Virus record (IMG/VR): IMGVR_UViG_3300028805_000037
Location: 192,001 to 256,000 of that record
Strand: one strand, 5' to 3'
Origin: a virus
Lineage: Duplodnaviria; Caudoviricetes
Length of the DNA stretch: 64,000 nt
Shown here: positions 43,228-54,093 of the stretch, piece after piece
How the letters are laid out: each line of letters begins with the position of its first letter
Position numbering within the stretch: the first letter of the stretch is position 1
Translations under genes and position numbers: made by a program
Notes under the pieces: model-generated
Told to the model about the DNA's origin: nothing
Seen by the model: only the letters and a program-made list of their open reading frames with translations
Databases searched by the model: none

Positions 43228-43683
43228 ATGAGCTTTGTAGTAGAAGAACAATATCTAACATTAAAATTTCAAAAATTGACAGAAAATGCAAAAACCCCAG
43301 TAAGAGGAACTAAATTTTCTTCTGGTTTAGATGTTTTTTCAACTGGAGATTATGATATTCCAGCAAGAGGAGATGTTTTAATTCCATTAGATTTAAGATT
43401 TGAAATTCCTATAGGTTGGGATTTATCAGTATATAATAAATCAGGTATGTCAACAAAATTAAAATTAGATAAAGGTGCAGAATTAATTGATTCAGATTAT
43501 CGTGGTAATTGTCATGTGCATTTATTTAATAATTCAGATAATGTTATACATATAGAAAAAGGGCAAAAAATAGCGCAATTAGTAATGAGAAAAGTTTGGT
43601 TAGGAAATGTTGAAGAAGTAAAAGAAATATCTACTGATACAAGTAGAGGTCAAGGTGGTTTTGGATCAACTGGAAAATTTTAA
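43228..43683 (+). CDS. dut: trimeric dUTPase
   Basis: SGLD, KSG, IDSDYRG, KIAQ, RGQGGFGSTG. Confidence 0.93.
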   Translation: MSFVVEEQYLTLKFQKLTENAKTPVRGTKFSSGLDVFSTGDYDIPARGDVLIPLDLRFEIPIGWDLSVYNKSGMSTKLKLDKGAELIDSDYRGNCHVHLFNNSDNVIHIEKGQKIAQLVMRKVWLGNVEEVKEISTDTSRGQGGFGSTGKF

Positions 43684-44838: not shown

Positions 44839-45339
44839 ATGAATAAAATAATTATAATAGAAGGTATATCACGTGTAGGTAAAACTACATTATGTAATAA
44901 AATTAATAAATTATATAATATACCAATATATAAACATAATAATAAAATAATAAATTATTCTGAAATGAATGATAAAAATGAAGTAGAAAAAATGATGGTT
45001 ATGTTAGACGTATATAGAACTATACCATCAAATATAATATTTGATAGATTTCATTTTTCAAATGCAGTTTATGGTATTTTATTAAGAAATTATGATGTTA
45101 ATGAATCTATTAATAATATTAAAAAGATTGAAAAATATATTAAATCTGTGAATTCTAGATGTATTTTAATTAAAGTTAGTCCTACAGATATTAAAGAATC
45201 TTCAAGACAATATGGTAGAGATTTAACAGAATTTGAAAATTATTTTCAAAAATTATATAATATATCAATATTAGAAAAATATAATTGTAATTATAATAAT
45301 CAAGATCAATTAATCAAAAAATTAAATTTAGGAGTTTAA
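44839..45339 (+). CDS. dNMP kinase (thymidylate-kinase-like)
   Basis: IEGISRVGKTT, FDRFHFSNAVYG. Confidence 0.88.
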   Translation: MNKIIIIEGISRVGKTTLCNKINKLYNIPIYKHNNKIINYSEMNDKNEVEKMMVMLDVYRTIPSNIIFDRFHFSNAVYGILLRNYDVNESINNIKKIEKYIKSVNSRCILIKVSPTDIKESSRQYGRDLTEFENYFQKLYNISILEKYNCNYNNQDQLIKKLNLGV

Positions 45340-46440
45340 ATGAATATTTTATATTTTTATTGGGGATTTCTTGGTGATGTAAAATATAAACCAAATGGAG
45401 AATTAGGTAGTTTTCCTGATGGTAATGCATTTTATTCTTGGTCAATAATACATGAATTACAAAAAAGAAATAATGATGTATATATTATTGAAGATAGAGA
45501 TAAAATAGGTTATGAAAAGTTTAATAAAGATTTATTTCATTCATTTGCTCAGAATAAAAGATGTGAATGTTATAGAAAATTAAAGATTTTTAATAAAAAT
45601 GTAAAAATAAATTATGCTATAATTGAATGGAGATGGCCAATACCTGGAAGAAATACATTAGATGTTAAAGGTACTAATATTTATCAACCAGATTTAGAAT
45701 ATATGCAAAATTGTATTGATTATTGTAATAATAATAAAATACCATTTATTATTTTTGATTTAGATTATAAATTACAATATGAAGATATAAAGAAGTATGA
45801 TATCAAATATATAATTGAATTAGGTAATAAATGGAATAAACTTTATGGTGATATTAAAGCTACAAGAGTAGAGATACCATTTGATTTTTCTTGTATTAAT
45901 GAAAAACCAATAAAAATGGAAAATTTTGAAAATGATTGTATTTATATTGGTTCACGTTATGAAAGAGATTGGTGTATGCATTATTTACCAAAAGGAACAG
46001 TTGTACATGGTAATTGGTTAGAACCAGGTCATGGAGATCCAGTAAATGAATTTCCAAATTTAGTATTTAAAAAGAGGTTATCAGCATCTGAAATTTTTGA
46101 ACCATATAATAATAGTATAGCAACTGTATTATTAGCTAAAAAAGAATATTGTAGTAAACAATTTATGACAGCACGTATACAAGAAGCAATTTTTTATGGA
46201 ACAGTACCATTATTTATTAGAGAATATGGTAAAGAATTAATTAATAAATATGCTGGAAAATATAGTAACATTTTAGTAGTAGCTTCAGATGAAGATGTTA
46301 AAATGAAAATAGATATATTTAAAACACGTCCAGAATTAAGAAAACAAATAATAATGTATTTACGTAAATATTTAAGATTTATGGATTGCAAATTTTTTGT
46401 TGATGATATACAAGAGTTAATAGGAGTTCAGAATGTATGA
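45340..46440 (+). CDS. GT-B DNA glycosyltransferase, T4 beta-glucosyltransferase-like
   Basis: IIFDLD, DCIYIGSRYER, HGNW, SIATVLLAKKEY..QFMTARIQEA, ELRKQII, colinear with T4 BGT as recalled. Confidence 0.75.
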   Translation: MNILYFYWGFLGDVKYKPNGELGSFPDGNAFYSWSIIHELQKRNNDVYIIEDRDKIGYEKFNKDLFHSFAQNKRCECYRKLKIFNKNVKINYAIIEWRWPIPGRNTLDVKGTNIYQPDLEYMQNCIDYCNNNKIPFIIFDLDYKLQYEDIKKYDIKYIIELGNKWNKLYGDIKATRVEIPFDFSCINEKPIKMENFENDCIYIGSRYERDWCMHYLPKGTVVHGNWLEPGHGDPVNEFPNLVFKKRLSASEIFEPYNNSIATVLLAKKEYCSKQFMTARIQEAIFYGTVPLFIREYGKELINKYAGKYSNILVVASDEDVKMKIDIFKTRPELRKQIIMYLRKYLRFMDCKFFVDDIQELIGVQNV

Positions 46441-48490
46441 TTATCTTATAGTTGGTTCAGGATTATATGGCAGTTTTGCAGCATTTTTGTTAACACAAAA
46501 AGGCAAAAAATGTTTAGTTATTGATAAACGAAATCATATAGGTGGTAATGTATATAATGAAAGAAAAGATGATATAGATATACATATTTATGGACCACAT
46601 ATATTTCATACATCAAATAAAGAATTGTGGAATTTTTTAAATAAATATATTAAATTTAATAATTTTATAAATCAACCATTAGCTATATATAAAAATGAAA
46701 TTTATAATTTACCATTTAATATGAATACATTTTCAAAAATGTGGAATATACAAACTCCAAAACAAGTACAAGAAATTATTTATAAACAAAAGCAAGAAAT
46801 AATAAATGAACCAAAAAATCTTGAAGAACAAGCAATAAGTTTAGTTGGTAGAGATATTTATGAAAAATTAATTAAAGGTTATACTGAAAAACAATGGGGA
46901 AAATCTTGCATAGAATTAGATAAGAATATAATAAAAAGATTACCAGTAAGATATACTTATGATAATAATTATTTTAATGATATATATCAAGGTATACCAA
47001 TTAATGGTTATAATGAACTAATAAATATATTTTTAAGTAAATGTGATGTGAAATTAAATATTAAATTTGATTATAGTAATAAAAAAGAATTAGAGAAATT
47101 AGCAAAAAAAATTATATATACTGGTTCACTTGATGAATTATATAATTATCAACTTGGTAAATTAGAATATAGGTCTTTAAAATTTGATACTTATTCTTTA
47201 CAAGAAGTTAATTATCAAGGTAATGCTGTAATTAATTATACTGAATATGAAATACCTTATACCAGAATTATAGAACATAAACATTTTAATAAATATCAGA
47301 AAGGTTATATAAATCCTATAACATATTTAACAAAAGAATATCCTATTAAATTTGAAGAAGGTTTAGAAAGATTTTATCCAATAAATAATGAAATAAATAA
47401 TCAATTATATCAAAAATATGTTGATTTAATTAATCAAGATAAAAAGTATATTTTTGGTGGTAGATTAGCAGAATATAAATATTATGATATGGATAAAGTT
47501 TTAATTAAATGTAAAGAAGATATAGATAAAATTTTAAAAATTAAAGATAACATTAAAATTAAAACTAGAGTTAAAAAAGAAAAAACAAATGTTATTAGTA
47601 ATGAAGAAATTTTAGGCTATTTAAAACAAACACAAGATATAAATACTTTAGAATATCCTGTATGTATACCAACTGTTCATAATAGAGAAAAATCAGTATT
47701 AAAATTATTAGATAATTTTGGTAATACAAAAATATTTTTATTTATTATACCTAATGAAGTTCAATTATATAATTATTTAAATAAATCAAATATTATTAAA
47801 GTTATATTACCAGAAGAATATGTTGGTTCAATACAAAAAGCAAGAAAATATATACAAGAATATATGGATAAACAAAATATTGATTTATATCATTGTATAG
47901 ATGATGATGTTGTTGGTTTTATGTTAATTAATAAAACAATAGATTGTAGTGTTTCTCAAGGTTTAAGAGTTCTAGAGTTATTTTCAAAAACTATTGAATT
48001 TTCATCATTAAGTTATTGTTTCAATGATATAAGTTGTAAATTTTGGAATGGTGAAAAATATGGTGAAGTTTTAACAGCAGTTCAATATTTATTTAATAAT
48101 AAAAAATTAAAAGAATTAAATTTAAGATTTACTGGACAATCTGATTTAAATGAAGATTTAGAATTTACTGTAAATTCATTGTTATATACTAATCTTCCAA
48201 CAAAAGTTTTAAGATGGGGATTAATAAAACAAGCTTATGCAGCTGGAGGTAAAGATTCAATAGCATCATCAAATAATTTACATTTATTATATCAAACAAA
48301 TAATTATTTAAAATTTGGTAATTATTTAAAATTTCATAAAGATATACGTGGTTTTAGAACAAATATTAATTATAGTAAAATTAAAAAAGATAAAAAGAAT
48401 AATAACATTAAAATAGAATATGATGAAAATTTATATAATATGTGTATAAGCAGAAATTATGAAGGATTAATTAAATATGTACAACAATAA
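46433..48490 (+). CDS. glf: UDP-galactopyranose mutase fused to a GT-A (TAGT/GREB1-like) glycosyltransferase
   Basis: N-terminal GSGLYG, HIGGN, YGPHIFHT, YTEKQWG, YQGIP, RIIEHKHF, GRLAEYKYYDMD; C-terminal (from ~47654) YPVCIPT..R, ARKYI, IDDD, NED, AGG. Confidence 0.9.
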   Translation: MYDYLIVGSGLYGSFAAFLLTQKGKKCLVIDKRNHIGGNVYNERKDDIDIHIYGPHIFHTSNKELWNFLNKYIKFNNFINQPLAIYKNEIYNLPFNMNTFSKMWNIQTPKQVQEIIYKQKQEIINEPKNLEEQAISLVGRDIYEKLIKGYTEKQWGKSCIELDKNIIKRLPVRYTYDNNYFNDIYQGIPINGYNELINIFLSKCDVKLNIKFDYSNKKELEKLAKKIIYTGSLDELYNYQLGKLEYRSLKFDTYSLQEVNYQGNAVINYTEYEIPYTRIIEHKHFNKYQKGYINPITYLTKEYPIKFEEGLERFYPINNEINNQLYQKYVDLINQDKKYIFGGRLAEYKYYDMDKVLIKCKEDIDKILKIKDNIKIKTRVKKEKTNVISNEEILGYLKQTQDINTLEYPVCIPTVHNREKSVLKLLDNFGNTKIFLFIIPNEVQLYNYLNKSNIIKVILPEEYVGSIQKARKYIQEYMDKQNIDLYHCIDDDVVGFMLINKTIDCSVSQGLRVLELFSKTIEFSSLSYCFNDISCKFWNGEKYGEVLTAVQYLFNNKKLKELNLRFTGQSDLNEDLEFTVNSLLYTNLPTKVLRWGLIKQAYAAGGKDSIASSNNLHLLYQTNNYLKFGNYLKFHKDIRGFRTNINYSKIKKDKKNNNIKIEYDENLYNMCISRNYEGLIKYVQQ

Positions 48491-48920
48491 GCAAATAAGA
48501 GAATTTAATTTTTTTATGAAATCAGCTTTATTGGCAGCACAAAATTCTTATGCAATTAGAAATAAAGTTGGTGCCGTATTTGTTAGAGATGGAAGAATTA
48601 TAAGTAGTGGTTGGAACGGTCAGCCTAAAGGTTTTGATAATTGTTGTGAAGAAAAATTAGAAGATGGTTCATTAAAAACATTACCAACAGTTATACATGC
48701 TGAAGCAAATGCGTTATGTTTTTGTGCAAAAAATGGTATATCATTAAAAGATTGTGATGCCTTTATTACATTAAGTCCTTGTATGAATTGTGCATTATTA
48801 TTAATACAAGCTGGTATTAAAAATGTTTATTATTATGAAGATTATAGAGATAATGGTGGTATTAAATTATTAAATAATGTCGGAATTAAATGTGAAAATA
48901 TTAAGGAGTATATTAAATGA
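48477..48920 (+). CDS. dCMP deaminase
   Basis: KVGA, GWNG, HAEANA, LSPCMNC. Confidence 0.93.
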   Translation: MYNNKQIREFNFFMKSALLAAQNSYAIRNKVGAVFVRDGRIISSGWNGQPKGFDNCCEEKLEDGSLKTLPTVIHAEANALCFCAKNGISLKDCDAFITLSPCMNCALLLIQAGIKNVYYYEDYRDNGGIKLLNNVGIKCENIKEYIK

Positions 48921-49651
48921 AAAATGAAGAAATAATATTACCATATTTTAAAGAATTAAAAAGAAAAAAAGATAATGGTAAATTTAAAATTGATAAAACT
49001 GGAGTAAAAACAGTTGAAATTAGAAATTGCCATATAGATGGATTAAATCCGTTACAACCAATATTAGAATTTCCTGGAAGAAAAACTCCAGAAAATTATG
49101 TAAAAAAAGAATCTAATTGGTATAATAGTTGTTCATTAAATATTAATGGTTATGTTGATGATGTAAAAATTTGGAAACAAGTTAGTGATAATGATGGTTT
49201 TGTAAATAGTAATTATGGTTGGTGTATATATTCAAAAGAAAATTATAAACAATATAATCATGTTTTAAAAGAATTAATTAATAATAATTGTTCTAGAAGA
49301 GCATCAATGATTTATAATAGACCATCAATGTGGATTGAATATAATCAAGATGGTATGAATGAATTTATGTGTACTTATGCAGTTCAATATGATATTACAG
49401 ATAATGAATTAAATGCTATTGTATATATGCGGTCGAATGATAGTCAATATGGGTTCTTTAATGATCTAGCTTGGCAGTGTGAAGTATATATGAAATTATA
49501 TAATGATTTAAAGAAACATTATAAAGATTTACAAATAGGTGTAATAGATTGGAATTCTGGTAGTTGGCATATTTATGAAAGACATTTTGAAATGTTAGAT
49601 AAAATATGTACTTATGAGGTTAAAAATGAAGAACCAAAAATCAATAATTAA
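48917..49651 (+). CDS. dCMP hydroxymethylase (T4 gp42-like, thymidylate synthase fold)
   Basis: DKTGVKT, NSNYGW, SRRASMIYNRPSM, DGMNEFMCT, MRSND..GFFND.AWQ, HIYERHF. Confidence 0.88.
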   Translation: MKNEEIILPYFKELKRKKDNGKFKIDKTGVKTVEIRNCHIDGLNPLQPILEFPGRKTPENYVKKESNWYNSCSLNINGYVDDVKIWKQVSDNDGFVNSNYGWCIYSKENYKQYNHVLKELINNNCSRRASMIYNRPSMWIEYNQDGMNEFMCTYAVQYDITDNELNAIVYMRSNDSQYGFFNDLAWQCEVYMKLYNDLKKHYKDLQIGVIDWNSGSWHIYERHFEMLDKICTYEVKNEEPKINN

Positions 49652-50024: not shown

Positions 50025-51131
50025 ATGATAAATGCAAGTTTTGAACAAATTGAAAAAGTAGAAAAACATCCTAATGCAGATAAATTAGATATAATTACAG
50101 TTTCAGGTTATACAGTAGTTTCACAAAAAGATACACATAAAGTAGGGGATACTGTGTTTTTTATTCGTGAAGATAGTCAAATACTTGTTGATGAACAAAA
50201 GTTTCCTTGGCATACAGGAGTTAAAACATATTTAGGTAAAAGTGGTAGAGTTAAAACAATTAAATTAAGGGGAATATTTAGTTCGGGCATTGTATTAAAT
50301 GCCGAAAAAGTATTAGAATCATATTTTAAAAATAACGGTCTTAAACGATATACCTTAGTAAGATATGAAATAAATAAAAGGTTGGAAGATGAAAAGTTCC
50401 TTGAAGAAAATTTTGGTATTAAACATTATGTACCACCAGCAGTTGGTGCAAGTTTTGGCAATTTACAAATGATAGGAACTATACCATTTGGTATACCAAA
50501 AACAGATGAAGAAAATGTACAAAATATAGATAAATCAGAATTACCATTTGGTGAAGAAGTTTTAGTTACAAGAAAACTTGATGGTACAAGTTGTACAGTA
50601 ATATTTGATAATGATGGTAAATATCATATTTGTGGTAGGAATTATGAATATAAATTAGGTCAAGATAATATTTATGAAAGAACAACTAAACAATTAATAG
50701 ATTTAATATTAGAAATAGGTTTTTATAAACAATTAAAAGAAAATGAACATTTAGTTATACAAGGTGAGGTTGCAGGCAAAGGAATACAATCAAATAAAAT
50801 AAACAAAATTAGTCAAATAGAAGAACCAAGATTTTATATATTTAGAACAATGTTATGGAATGATAAAGATAGAACAAAAGTTGATTGGGGCAATTATGGT
50901 AGTAAATATCATTTTTTTAAAATTAGAAGACAATTAGTTGAAGAAGAATTTAGAAAAAATAAAACTAATAGTGTAGTATATTGTGTTCCTATATTAGGTA
51001 GAGAAATATTAACAGAAGAAATGGTGCAAAAATATATAAATGCACCTGCAGAAGAAGGTGAAGGCGTAGTAATTAACCACAAAAAAGGACATTTTAAGAT
51101 TAAGTCATTAGATTACATAAGTAAATTTTAG
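50025..51131 (+). CDS. RNA ligase, Rnl2/DRB0094-type with N-terminal OB module
   Basis: HPNADKL, KLRGIFSSG, PKTDEE, KLDGTS, QGE, EGVV, FKIKS. Confidence 0.88.
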   Translation: MINASFEQIEKVEKHPNADKLDIITVSGYTVVSQKDTHKVGDTVFFIREDSQILVDEQKFPWHTGVKTYLGKSGRVKTIKLRGIFSSGIVLNAEKVLESYFKNNGLKRYTLVRYEINKRLEDEKFLEENFGIKHYVPPAVGASFGNLQMIGTIPFGIPKTDEENVQNIDKSELPFGEEVLVTRKLDGTSCTVIFDNDGKYHICGRNYEYKLGQDNIYERTTKQLIDLILEIGFYKQLKENEHLVIQGEVAGKGIQSNKINKISQIEEPRFYIFRTMLWNDKDRTKVDWGNYGSKYHFFKIRRQLVEEEFRKNKTNSVVYCVPILGREILTEEMVQKYINAPAEEGEGVVINHKKGHFKIKSLDYISKF

Positions 51132-51152
51132 GAAAAAGGAAAAATTAAAATA

Positions 51153-51722
51153 GTGGAAAAGAAAATATTTATAATAAGTGATACTCATTTTTGGCATACA
51201 AGAATAATCAGATTTGAAAATCGTCCATTTAAATCAGTAGAAGAAATGAATGAAGAACTCATCAAAAGATGGAATTCTAAAGTGTCTAATAATGATACTG
51301 TTATTCATTTAGGTGATTTTTGTTTTGGAAATAAAGAAAAGACTCAAGATATTGCACAAAGATTAAATGGTAAGAAAATACTTATAATGGGAAATCATGA
51401 CGACTCTAGAAATGTAAAATGGTTTATAGATTGCGGCTTTGATGAAGTTTATAGGTATTCTATACTTTTTCAAAATTATTTTATTCTTTCTCATGAACCT
51501 ATTGCTTATTTAAAAGCACCATTTGTGAATCTTTATGGTCATGTTCATGGTAGTCCCAATAATCCAACATTCACTAAAAATAGTGTATGTTGTTGTGTAG
51601 AAAGATGGAATTATGCGCCTATAAATTTTACTACAATAATGAGGAATATAGAAAAATTACAAAGACAAATTGATGCAACTATGATTAACTTTGAATCTTC
51701 AGAAACAATAGAAGAACAATAA
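51153..51722 (+). CDS. calcineurin-like phosphoesterase
   Basis: SDTHFWH, LGDF, GNHD, SHEP, GHVH. Confidence 0.9.
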   Translation: MEKKIFIISDTHFWHTRIIRFENRPFKSVEEMNEELIKRWNSKVSNNDTVIHLGDFCFGNKEKTQDIAQRLNGKKILIMGNHDDSRNVKWFIDCGFDEVYRYSILFQNYFILSHEPIAYLKAPFVNLYGHVHGSPNNPTFTKNSVCCCVERWNYAPINFTTIMRNIEKLQRQIDATMINFESSETIEEQ

Positions 51723-51738
51723 ATTTAAATTTTAAAAA

Positions 51739-52020
51739 ATGAAACAAATTAATCAAACCCAATTCTATGCTAAAATTCTTTTAAAATTACATAAAATTTT
51801 ATCAATTTATGAAGGTAAAATTTTATGTAGAGAGATTTCTGAAAAAATAGAGAATGATATAAAAGAATTTTATAAACAATTAAAAATTAAATATAAAAGT
51901 ATTTTAAATATAAGATATTTAAATGAACTCATTAAACAGCCAATTCATTATAAAGTAAGATATCATACATTATTAAGTATACAGATTGATATAGATTTAA
52001 AGAGGTTATTTAAAAAATGA
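51739..52020 (+). CDS. hypothetical protein
   Basis: ORF overlapping next start. Confidence 0.55.
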   Translation: MKQINQTQFYAKILLKLHKILSIYEGKILCREISEKIENDIKEFYKQLKIKYKSILNIRYLNELIKQPIHYKVRYHTLLSIQIDIDLKRLFKK

Positions 52021-53111
52021 ATTTAGAAGTATTAGAATTTATTAATAATAATAAAAACTGGAAAGAAATTCTTGAAAAAAATCCATATAATATAAAAATT
52101 AAAGAAGAAGATAATTTTATTATATTAAATTATTCTCAAGTTGAAAGTGATTTTTCATTAAGAATAGTACAAGAATGTAGAGGATTAATTTTAGTTAAAG
52201 AAGATAATAAATATATTCCAGTATGTATTCCATTTTTTAAGTTTTTTAATTATGGTGAAAAATATGCAAGTAAAATTGATTGGAATTCAGCACAAGTTCA
52301 AGAAAAAATTGACGGTTCATTAATTAAAATATGGTTTTATAAAGATAAAATGCATATATCTACAAATAGTATGATTGATGCATTTAAAGCTACTATAGCA
52401 TTACCTACTGATAATTTTAAAACTTATGGTGATTTAGTAATATATTGTTTAAATTCATTTTATAAAATAGAAGAGTTTAATAAAGATTACACGTATATGT
52501 TTGAATTAGTTTCACCTTATACAAGAATAGTAGTTCCTTATAAAGAAATAAAATTATTTTATTTGGGACAAAGAAATAATAAAACATTTAATGAGATGAA
52601 TTTAAGAAATTTTTATAATTATGTACCTAAGTTATATAATATATCAATATTAAGTGATTGTGTAAATAATGCTAATAAATTGCCTAAAGATAAAGAAGGA
52701 TATGTAGTAGTTGATGAAAGATTTAATAGAATAAAAGTAAAATCACCTGTTTATGTAGCTATGCATCATATAAGAACAAATGTGGCAACCGAAAAATCAA
52801 TATTAGAATTGATAAGAAAAAATGAAATAGATGAATTTACAAATTATTTTCCAGAATATAAAAATGTTTCACAACAAATAAAAGATAAATATAATAATGC
52901 ATGTGCAGACATAGCAAATTGTTATTTGTTTGTTGAAATGAAAGTAAAAAATTTAAAAACAAGAAAAGAACAAGCACAACTTATAATGCAAAATTTTAAA
53001 AATTGTTCAGATTTTGCATTTAGTTATCTTGATGGAAGAGTTAAAGGAATAGAAGAATTCATTAAAAATTTGAGTTTAGAAAAATTATTGAAGCGATTGG
53101 AGAATTATTAA
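52017..53111 (+). CDS. T4 Rnl1-type RNA ligase
   Basis: ECRGLIL, FFKFFNYGE, EKIDGSL, FELVSP, EGYVV, RIKVKS. Confidence 0.9.
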   Translation: MNLEVLEFINNNKNWKEILEKNPYNIKIKEEDNFIILNYSQVESDFSLRIVQECRGLILVKEDNKYIPVCIPFFKFFNYGEKYASKIDWNSAQVQEKIDGSLIKIWFYKDKMHISTNSMIDAFKATIALPTDNFKTYGDLVIYCLNSFYKIEEFNKDYTYMFELVSPYTRIVVPYKEIKLFYLGQRNNKTFNEMNLRNFYNYVPKLYNISILSDCVNNANKLPKDKEGYVVVDERFNRIKVKSPVYVAMHHIRTNVATEKSILELIRKNEIDEFTNYFPEYKNVSQQIKDKYNNACADIANCYLFVEMKVKNLKTRKEQAQLIMQNFKNCSDFAFSYLDGRVKGIEEFIKNLSLEKLLKRLENY

Positions 53112-53436: not shown

Positions 53437-54093
53437 ATGGATGTAAAAATTATAGGTAATACTTATACTGATGAAGCAACTATTACTGAATATTTTGCTA
53501 AAATAGCAAGAAGATGCTATACAACTATTCCATTTATAGATATTCAAATTGATTATGAAAAAGCTAAAAAATTATTAAAAAAGATTATTGATTCTGGACA
53601 TTTATCAATTTTAGAACATTATTCATTTACATTTGCTATAGAAAACGTATCTGTAGCGCTTCTTGGACAATTAACAAGAAATAGATTAGCATCATTTACA
53701 GTTCAATCATTAAGATACAATAATATGAAAGATAGTGATATCAATGTAAGTATACCTGAAGGTATAAAATATGATGATTTAAATGAAATATATTTAAAGT
53801 CAATTAGTGAATCTTACAATAATTATAATAAACTTATAGAAAAAGGCTATAAACCAGAACAAGCTAGATATGTTCTGCCTCAAGGAATAAGAACAAATTT
53901 GATTATGACGATGAATGTAAGAGAACTTTTTCATTTCTTTGATTTAAGGTATTGTAATAGAGCAGATAATGAAATACATCAATTAGCAACTATGATCTAT
54001 TTTCTAGTAAATCAAAAAGATAATTATTTATTTAGTTTTGCAAAACATTCCTGTCAACAATGTAAAAATAAATGTGAAAAATATAAAAAATAA
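53437..54093 (+). CDS. thyX: flavin-dependent thymidylate synthase
   Basis: GHLSILEH, QLTRNRLASFTVQSLRY, ARYVLP, NVREL, EI. Confidence 0.9.
   Translation: MDVKIIGNTYTDEATITEYFAKIARRCYTTIPFIDIQIDYEKAKKLLKKIIDSGHLSILEHYSFTFAIENVSVALLGQLTRNRLASFTVQSLRYNNMKDSDINVSIPEGIKYDDLNEIYLKSISESYNNYNKLIEKGYKPEQARYVLPQGIRTNLIMTMNVRELFHFFDLRYCNRADNEIHQLATMIYFLVNQKDNYLFSFAKHSCQQCKNKCEKYKK

Follow-up and report, generated by a model that had tools for sequence, protein, structure and literature searches.

Glucosylation of 5-hydroxymethylcytosine (hmC) in the DNA of the T-even phages is textbook knowledge. We analyze here a five-gene operon that predicts a variant of that pathway with a different sugar, galactofuranose (Galf). 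The operon occupies positions 44839-49651 of a 64,000-nt stretch of DNA (the window), which corresponds to bases 192001-256000 of the virus record IMGVR_UViG_3300028805_000037. The phage is uncultured and is known here from metagenomic DNA. Like the T-even phages, it encodes a dCMP hydroxymethylase of the gp42 type, which shares the catalytic and specificity residues of gp42, as well as a dCMP deaminase. A glycosyltransferase of the GT-B fold, resembling the T4 beta-glucosyltransferase (BGT), adjoins the hydroxymethylase, as b-gt adjoins gene 42 in T4, and there is a second glycosyltransferase, of the GT-A fold, homologous to the product of T6 ggt, a gene that adjoins gene 42 in T6. The operon differs from the T-even systems in that it includes a UDP-galactopyranose mutase (Glf), fused to the GT-A domain, the predicted sugar donor being UDP-Galf and not UDP-glucose. 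It differs also in that the GT-B protein is too diverged for the BGT models of Pfam and PHROG. With respect to nucleotide supply, the kinase is thymidylate-kinase-like and is not gp1, no dCTPase of the gp56 type was found, and dTMP is provided via ThyX and not via Td.

UDP-Galf of phage origin has already been proposed as a donor for DNA modification. In the Rhizobium phage RL38J1 and the Pootjesviridae, it would serve to produce galactosyl-5-hydroxycytosine, in which galactose is base-proximal (Lee et al., NAR 2026, PMC13326640). RL38J1 shares with the window a phage-encoded Glf, a cytosine enzyme of the thymidylate synthase (TS) fold, a thymidylate-kinase-like kinase (gp214) and DNA glycosyltransferases (PMC13326640). 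However, the base of RL38J1 is 5-hydroxycytosine, made by an enzyme with the D169N substitution, whereas the window enzyme keeps Asp169 and predicts hmC. In addition, the RL38J1 Glf (gp084) stands alone and far from the TS homologue (gp216), whereas that of the window is fused to a TAGT-like glycosyltransferase and overlaps its neighbours, and the RL38J1 glycosyltransferases belong to families other than those of the window. The TET-associated glycosyltransferases (TAGT, PF20691) provide a further comparison. They have in common with the window GT-A domain the fold and the DxD motif, and they account for its top structural matches among viral models and for over half of its sequence homologues. 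Unlike in the TAGT systems, no TET/JBP dioxygenase would take part in the phage studied here, as its hmC is predicted to be made at the nucleotide level. Fusion of the domain to Glf is, moreover, an architecture found only in a handful of close relatives.

The five open reading frames, all on the + strand, lie exactly as the original prediction had described them. They encode a P-loop nucleotide monophosphate kinase of 166 aa, the predicted kinase of 5-hydroxymethyl-dCMP (hm-dCMP) (44839-45339); the GT-B protein of 366 aa, predicted to glycosylate hmC in DNA (45340-46440); a fusion protein of 685 aa, termed P0001, that comprises Glf and GT-A (46433-48490); the dCMP deaminase (48477-48920) and the dCMP hydroxymethylase (48917-49651). 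The kinase and GT-B genes abut, and the three following junctions are overlaps of 8, 14 and 4 nt, respectively. We consider it probable that this phage produces hmC-DNA carrying Galf, as a mono- and/or disaccharide, by means of a T4-like pathway in which the sugar is a different one. The gp42-type enzyme would convert dCMP to hm-dCMP, which the P-loop kinase and the host NDP kinase would bring to the triphosphate, and the phage polymerase would incorporate hmC into DNA. The dCMP deaminase, ThyX and dUTPase would sustain the supply of dTTP. The Glf domain would contract host UDP-galactopyranose to UDP-Galf, and both the BGT-like GT-B and the Glf-fused TAGT-like GT-A would decorate hmC in DNA; sugar-bearing hmC would in turn block restriction enzymes and other nucleases. 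In this scheme, DNA as the acceptor, the transfer of Galf and the assignment of that transfer to one enzyme or another are what we infer.

When PDB sequences were searched, the TS-fold protein matched the T4 gp42 crystal structures at 3e-53 and thymidylate synthases at 5e-10 or weaker. The protein scores far below the NCBIfam equivalog cut-offs for thymidylate synthase, and its closest cultured relatives are the gp42 proteins of Tequatrovirus (46% identity). It was aligned residue by residue with E. coli ThyA, T4 gp42, RB69 gp48 and four metagenomic relatives. The motifs DKTGVKT, NSNYGW, RPSM, FMCT, MRSND and GFFND are all present and align with T4 gp42, which bears out the claim, made from the sequence alone, that the protein follows gp42 motif by motif and keeps the Asp that selects dCMP. 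The catalytic Cys, contained in EFMCT, aligns with ThyA C146 and T4 C148. The Asp of GFFND stands in the column of T4 D179 and ThyA N177, a position at which Asp selects dCMP over dUMP (PMC13326640). In the column of ThyA L143, the window protein has Glu (that of EFMCT), T4 has Asp and ThyA has Leu; an acidic residue at this site admits water, the product being hydroxymethylated rather than methylated (PMC13326640). The column of ThyA D169 is occupied by Asp both in the window protein (MRSND) and in T4, and by Asn in RB69 gp48 (RSQN). Where a TS homologue carries Asn at D169, its product is 5-hydroxy-dCMP instead of 5-hydroxymethyl-dCMP (PMC13326640). Hence, the window enzyme lacks the D169N mark of 5-hydroxy-dCMP synthases of the RB69 gp48 / RL38J1 gp216 type. 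It is also the sole PF00303 match and the only TS-fold gene of the genome. Two ThyX genes were found in the genome, one of them in the window (flavin-dependent thymidylate synthase, 53437-54093, + strand; PF02511 1.8e-53, genome 245491-246015, window 53491-54015). As ThyX supplies dTMP, the TS-fold enzyme would be free for hydroxymethylation. Taking into account the diagnostic residues, the gp42 relatives, the single TS-fold gene and the provision of dTMP by ThyX, the prediction that this gene accounts for hm-dCMP synthesis, and hence for hmC, is well founded.

The kinase matches phrog_761 ('thymidylate kinase') at 1.5e-14 and, in its P-loop, Thymidylate_kin of Pfam, in agreement with its proposed role as a P-loop dNMP kinase. 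Its best PDB match is the kinase-like protein YorR of SPbeta (1.1e-4), and no match to T4 gp1 (1DEK/1DEL) was obtained in the PDB at E<=1. It is probably a functional analogue, not a homologue, of the gp1 dNMP kinase, as is the thymidylate-kinase-like gp214 of RL38J1. The dCMP deaminase had also been correctly named; it is identified by PF00383 (2.1e-23) and phrog_174 (3.7e-55) and is predicted, like T4 Cd, to provide the dUMP from which dTMP is made. Upstream of the operon, at 1.2 kb, a nucleotide-pool accessory gene encodes a trimeric dUTPase (43228-43683, + strand; PF00692 4.2e-26). This dUTPase-fold gene was considered as a possible dCTPase and rejected, as it scores as a true dUTPase (TIGR00576 above cut-off).

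Plain sequence searches are blind to the GT-B protein. No significant match was found in Pfam (PF13524 appeared only below threshold), PHROG, NCBIfam or the PDB sequences, where a phmmer match was discarded as due to chance, and tblastn against 50,697 phage records gave no match. Its family includes 938 proteins at E<=0.001, all of them unnamed. An AlphaFold model was built from 42 family sequences (pLDDT 93.4). Upon comparing it to the PDB with Foldseek, the five best matches were all T4 beta-glucosyltransferase, followed by T4 alpha-glucosyltransferase, and the modelled two-Rossmann-domain GT-B fold superposes on BGT. Alignment of the family profile with the T4 BGT sequence by hhalign gave a probability of 89.6% (E 1.9e-6) in the C-terminal half. 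In that alignment, the family-invariant Arg279 and Glu282 pair with BGT Arg269 and Glu272, which we take to be the UDP-binding residues. The N-terminal half contains several invariant acidic residues; it lies outside the hhalign coverage, where the BGT catalytic base Asp100 falls. The same comparison of the family with T6 alpha-glucosyltransferase was not significant. The colinearity with T4 BGT, first read from the letters, is therefore supported by structure and profile. As the curated models of Pfam and PHROG miss the protein, we refer to it, from model and profile, as BGT-like without assigning it to the BGT family.

We then considered the genetic context of the GT-B family at 44 loci, 41 of them from IMG/VR and 3 from assembly. 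A TS-fold gene is present in the flanks of GT-B at 33 of these loci, usually as the directly adjacent gene, and in every complete flanking TS-fold gene the acidic-x-x-Cys-Thr motif is accompanied by Asp at both D169 and N177. Kinase homologues occur near GT-B at 36 of the 44 loci; at one of them (L021), a gp56-family dUTPase_2 gene directly precedes the kinase. A metagenomic protein of 613 aa (P0085) unites in one chain a BGT-like GT-B and a TS domain of the dCMP hydroxymethylase type. Family identities, diagnostic residues and conserved gene linkage are what the present results demonstrate. Because of the conserved adjacency and of the fusion with the hydroxymethylase in P0085, there is strong, if indirect, evidence that the GT-B family glycosylates hmC.

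In many phages of about 50 kb, a radical-SAM gene, in one case with a SPASM domain, is located between the kinase and GT-B of the hmC module (L009:7147-8001, L017:7127-8017, L024:6024-6887), and a weakly GT47-like gene follows the hydroxymethylase in the same modules (L009:9926-11101, L017:9857-11002). These genes may account for further, undescribed tailoring of glycosyl-hmC.

The GT-A domain spans residues 390-685 of P0001 (47600-48490, + strand). Residues 407-581 match phrog_842 ('beta-glucosyl-HMC-alpha-glucosyltransferase') at 2.7e-5. The model of the domain (pLDDT 94.6) has the GT-A fold, and the DDD motif at residues 490-492, invariant in the family, aligns with IDDD of T6 ggt; the family profile aligns with T6 ggt with a probability of 92.4% (hhalign, E 5e-7). 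Eighteen of the 33 GT-A homologues match the Pfam TAGT family (PF20691). In a structural search of BFVD, TAGT proteins rank on top and a beta-glucosyl-HMC-alpha-glucosyltransferase of a Klebsiella phage is also among the matches; those in the PDB are generic GT-A enzymes only, including wall-teichoic-acid and collagen glycosyltransferases. The resemblance to the T2/T6 enzyme that adds a second sugar is real but remote, as the phrog_842, hhalign and BFVD results concur in showing. Judging from profiles and models, both glycosyltransferases appear to come from DNA-modifying lineages. The GT-A domain is rare, with 44 representatives matched among 1.8 billion. The Glf::GT-A fusion is kept in the closest relative of the window locus (L002) and in two further close relatives (P0166 and P0167), and the fused GT-A is a rare add-on to the pairing of Glf and GT-B. 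Stand-alone homologues of the domain (P0122, P0124 and P0127) are located on short contigs, with neither hydroxymethylase nor Glf nearby.

Residues 1-375 of P0001 (46433-47557, + strand) correspond to Glf. Within this part, residues 1-368 match Pfam GLF (PF03275) at 5.5e-68 over the full profile, as well as the FAD-binding N-terminal domain PF13450. They score 368.7 bits with TIGR00031, above the equivalog cut-off of 303.75, and align end to end with solved mutases (4mo2, 1.1e-131; E. coli 1i8t, 2.6e-128). Hence, the domain is a genuine Glf, as had been claimed. A search of other phages for glf beside the hydroxymethylase module, suggested together with the original prediction, showed that the arrangement recurs in three lineages: Glf is directly beside GT-B in the clade of the window (window, L002, L003 and L005; tree support 100/99), in L024 and in the distant L040. 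To explain this distribution, three gains or losses have to be assumed on the GT-B tree. The replicases differ as well, L002 and L024 having PolIII-alpha and L040 PolB. L002, whose GT-B is 71% identical to that of the window, also encodes a GalE equivalog downstream of the Glf fusion (TIGR01179, 413 bits, cut-off 262). With GalE and Glf, L002 would have the full route from UDP-Glc through UDP-Galp to UDP-Galf.

A Glf homologue, 30% identical, is also present in Aeromonas phage Aes508 (L058, NC_019543:149417-153196), where two unannotated proteins of about 350 aa follow it. Neither of these resembles the GT-B family, and this locus was rejected as an instance of the same module. Cultured T4-like Aeromonas phages with Glf would nevertheless be amenable to a search for furanosylated DNA in culture.

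Two arrangements of the sugars can be envisaged. GT-B might put Galf directly on hmC, GT-A adding a second sugar or serving other sites (a); alternatively, GT-B might add a common hexose such as glucose, which the Glf-fused GT-A would cap with Galf (b). We give both roughly equal odds, and both enzymes may use Galf. Evidence bearing on this choice comes from L003/L004 and L005, which have a stand-alone Glf of 370-373 aa, and from L024 and L040; at all of them, Glf is found beside GT-B without a GT-A of the window family. No GT1, GT2 or A2-family match was obtained in the genome of L024, which is 98% complete. At all these loci, no user of the Glf product other than GT-B is apparent, and Galf may accordingly be transferred by GT-B itself; in L003 and L005, this protein shares 58-60% identity with its window counterpart. 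TAGT enzymes, in addition, are described in their Pfam name as acting directly on hmC, and the same is reportedly the conclusion of work from 2021 by Burke and colleagues. These observations tell against the version of (b) in which GT-B, like T4 BGT, transfers glucose from UDP-glucose to hmC and UDP-Galf serves the Glf-fused GT-A alone. Fusion of the mutase to GT-A argues, on the other hand, for the use of UDP-Galf by the latter and suggests a hand-over of that sugar nucleotide, which is thermodynamically disfavoured in the equilibrium of UDP-galactopyranose mutases (UGM). Further arguments are the homology of GT-A to T6 ggt, an enzyme that adds to a first sugar, and the fact that most members of the GT-B family work without Glf. 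Taken as a complete account of the locus, this version is unlikely, if still a serious contender. The Galf-hexose-hmC order first put forward is then one option, and direct transfer of Galf by GT-B is about equally probable.

A different possibility is that the DNA contains glycosylated hmC but that Glf and GT-A serve virion proteins or a surface glycan of the host, no furanose being placed on DNA. In prophages and bacteria, the usual role of Glf is to supply surface glycans; the tblastn matches include records of Streptococcus suis prophages, and the PDB matches of GT-A are, as stated above, wall-teichoic-acid and collagen glycosyltransferases. Nevertheless, the closest relatives of GT-A are the DNA enzymes TAGT and T6 ggt, Glf recurs beside the hmC module in three lineages and does so inside replication gene blocks, and the gene of the Glf fusion overlaps both its neighbours, GT-B and the dCMP deaminase. 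We regard this explanation as improbable.

The mutase could also act on another UDP-sugar, such as UDP-GalNAc or UDP-arabinopyranose, in which case the furanose on DNA would not be Galf. The best PDB match of Glf is 4mo2, which we take to be the bifunctional UDP-GalNAc/Gal mutase of C. jejuni, and RB69 and DLP3 are known to carry arabinofuranose on cytosine. In the columns of 4mo2 Arg59 and Arg168, the window Glf agrees with E. coli Glf in having His and Lys; a rule that would tie sugar specificity to these two residues found no confirmation in a literature search. Since the domain passes the equivalog cut-off for UDP-galactopyranose mutase and since the fusion is paired in L002 with a GalE equivalog, we attach a still smaller chance to another substrate. 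Least of all do we favour 5-hydroxycytosine, with an ether-linked sugar as in RB69, DLP3 and RL38J1, as the base: the only published proposal of a phage Glf acting towards DNA, that for RL38J1, concerns this base, and 5-hydroxy-dCMP and hm-dCMP enzymes share one superfamily, but in a single alignment the window enzyme has Asp at D169, as T4, where RB69 gp48 has Asn, and its closest relatives are Tequatrovirus gp42 proteins, which makes this base highly improbable.

Several observations weigh against the proposal of galactofuranosylated hmC. In the structural comparison, BGT outscores unrelated GT-B enzymes by no more than 1-2 Z units, and the window GT-A domain itself has no PF20691 match at E<=0.1. 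Glf is present in only one of the 21 near-complete genomes that encode GT-B. As 20 of the 21 lack it, most of the family uses another donor; the default donor of the GT-B family is not the Glf product, and the window GT-B could use that default. No GalE was found in the window genome, and the phage must draw on UDP-galactose of the host for this reason. A further glycosyltransferase, with GT2 and TPR domains, exists elsewhere in the genome. Finally, no dCTPase was recognized in the genome with T6 gp56 as phmmer query or with PF08761 and MazG. Complete replacement of cytosine is thus not assured; it may be partial, or it may depend on an unrecognized enzyme. In the initial interpretation taken as a whole, hm-dCMP synthesis, the BGT-like GT-B, Glf, a DNA-type GT-A and DNA as the most likely target stand, and what has to be given up are the fixed order of the sugars and the novelty of a Galf-cytosine.

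To our knowledge, a furanose hexose on hmC has had no chemical demonstration so far. The statement that no Galf derivative of cytosine was known has to be corrected, as UDP-Galf had already been proposed for the galactosyl-5-hydroxycytosine of RL38J1 (PMC13326640). As an idea, galactofuranosylated DNA is not new (PMC13326640, 2026), and in our literature search this paper alone joined Glf with cytosine modification of the TS-fold/dCMP-hydroxymethylase type. What distinguishes the window is, as far as can be read from its genes, the Glf::TAGT-like fusion together with a BGT-like enzyme. We incline, by a little, to the broader view that Galf-hmC, alone or as a disaccharide, is a real and undescribed base, and that it stems from a BGT-like family of about 940 members whose donor-setting neighbours can be swapped. 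By such neighbours we mean Glf here and the radical-SAM/SPASM and GT47-like genes elsewhere, and the Glf::TAGT fusion is included in this view.

If this holds true, the phage would have in the Glf::TAGT fusion an enzyme dedicated to producing UDP-Galf and consuming it in place. Sugar-coated cytosines are a classic means by which phages escape restriction enzymes, type IV nucleases and CRISPR; with every further sugar, the set of defences evaded would change, and new tools for labelling hmC would become available. The five-gene operon is compact and cloneable, and GalE can be obtained from a relative, which makes the chemistry approachable in E. coli without culturing the phage. Apart from the nature of the sugar, the BGT-like family, invisible to Pfam and PHROG, is regularly found together with dCMP hydroxymethylases in many uncultured phages. 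Its recognition would improve the annotation of hypermodified phage genomes, including those of candidates for therapy.

The virus record comprises 300,445 bp and is rated 98% complete. Its GC content is 26%, and that of the window about 22%. Almost all window genes are on the + strand, and the five-gene block sits inside a much longer co-directional array on that strand, surrounded by replication and nucleotide-metabolism genes. A promoter consensus scan returned 69 promoter-like sites, as against 79.7 in shuffled sequence, and is uninformative in DNA of 22% GC, so that it gave no confirmation of the single phage promoter first described; the terminator scan gave none on the + strand. Megablast of the operon against the 50,697 phage records gave no match. 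Near-identical, full-length DNA is present in sheep gut metagenome runs, possibly the source sample itself, and partial DNA matches were obtained in bovine and other gut metagenomes; the sequencing runs listed as matching include no RNA run. The low GC content, these matches and an anaerobic ribonucleotide reductase encoded in the genome indicate that the host is probably a low-GC gut anaerobe.

The genome contains a duplicated pair of nucleotide genes, with two copies each of dUTPase and ThyX. One pair flanks the operon; the other, in which the genes are adjacent, is found at the right end of the record (genome 298894-299277 and 299352-299921) and could reflect duplication or terminal redundancy. 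The GT2/TPR glycosyltransferase mentioned above (genome 49371-51092; L049:6372-8093) is a protein of 573 aa with two GT2 domains and TPR repeats, encoded between a DEAD/ResIII helicase and the nicotinamidase / NAPRTase genes of NAD salvage. In a contig of a related jumbo phage, a TnpB/OrfB_IS605 gene (L003:15850-16950) is found within a few kb of the hmC module. Downstream of the operon, positions 50025-53111 of the window contain a block resembling an RNA-repair system, composed of an RNA ligase with an OB-fold domain (50025-51131), a metallophosphoesterase (51153-51722) and an RNA ligase of the T4 Rnl1 type (52017-53111).

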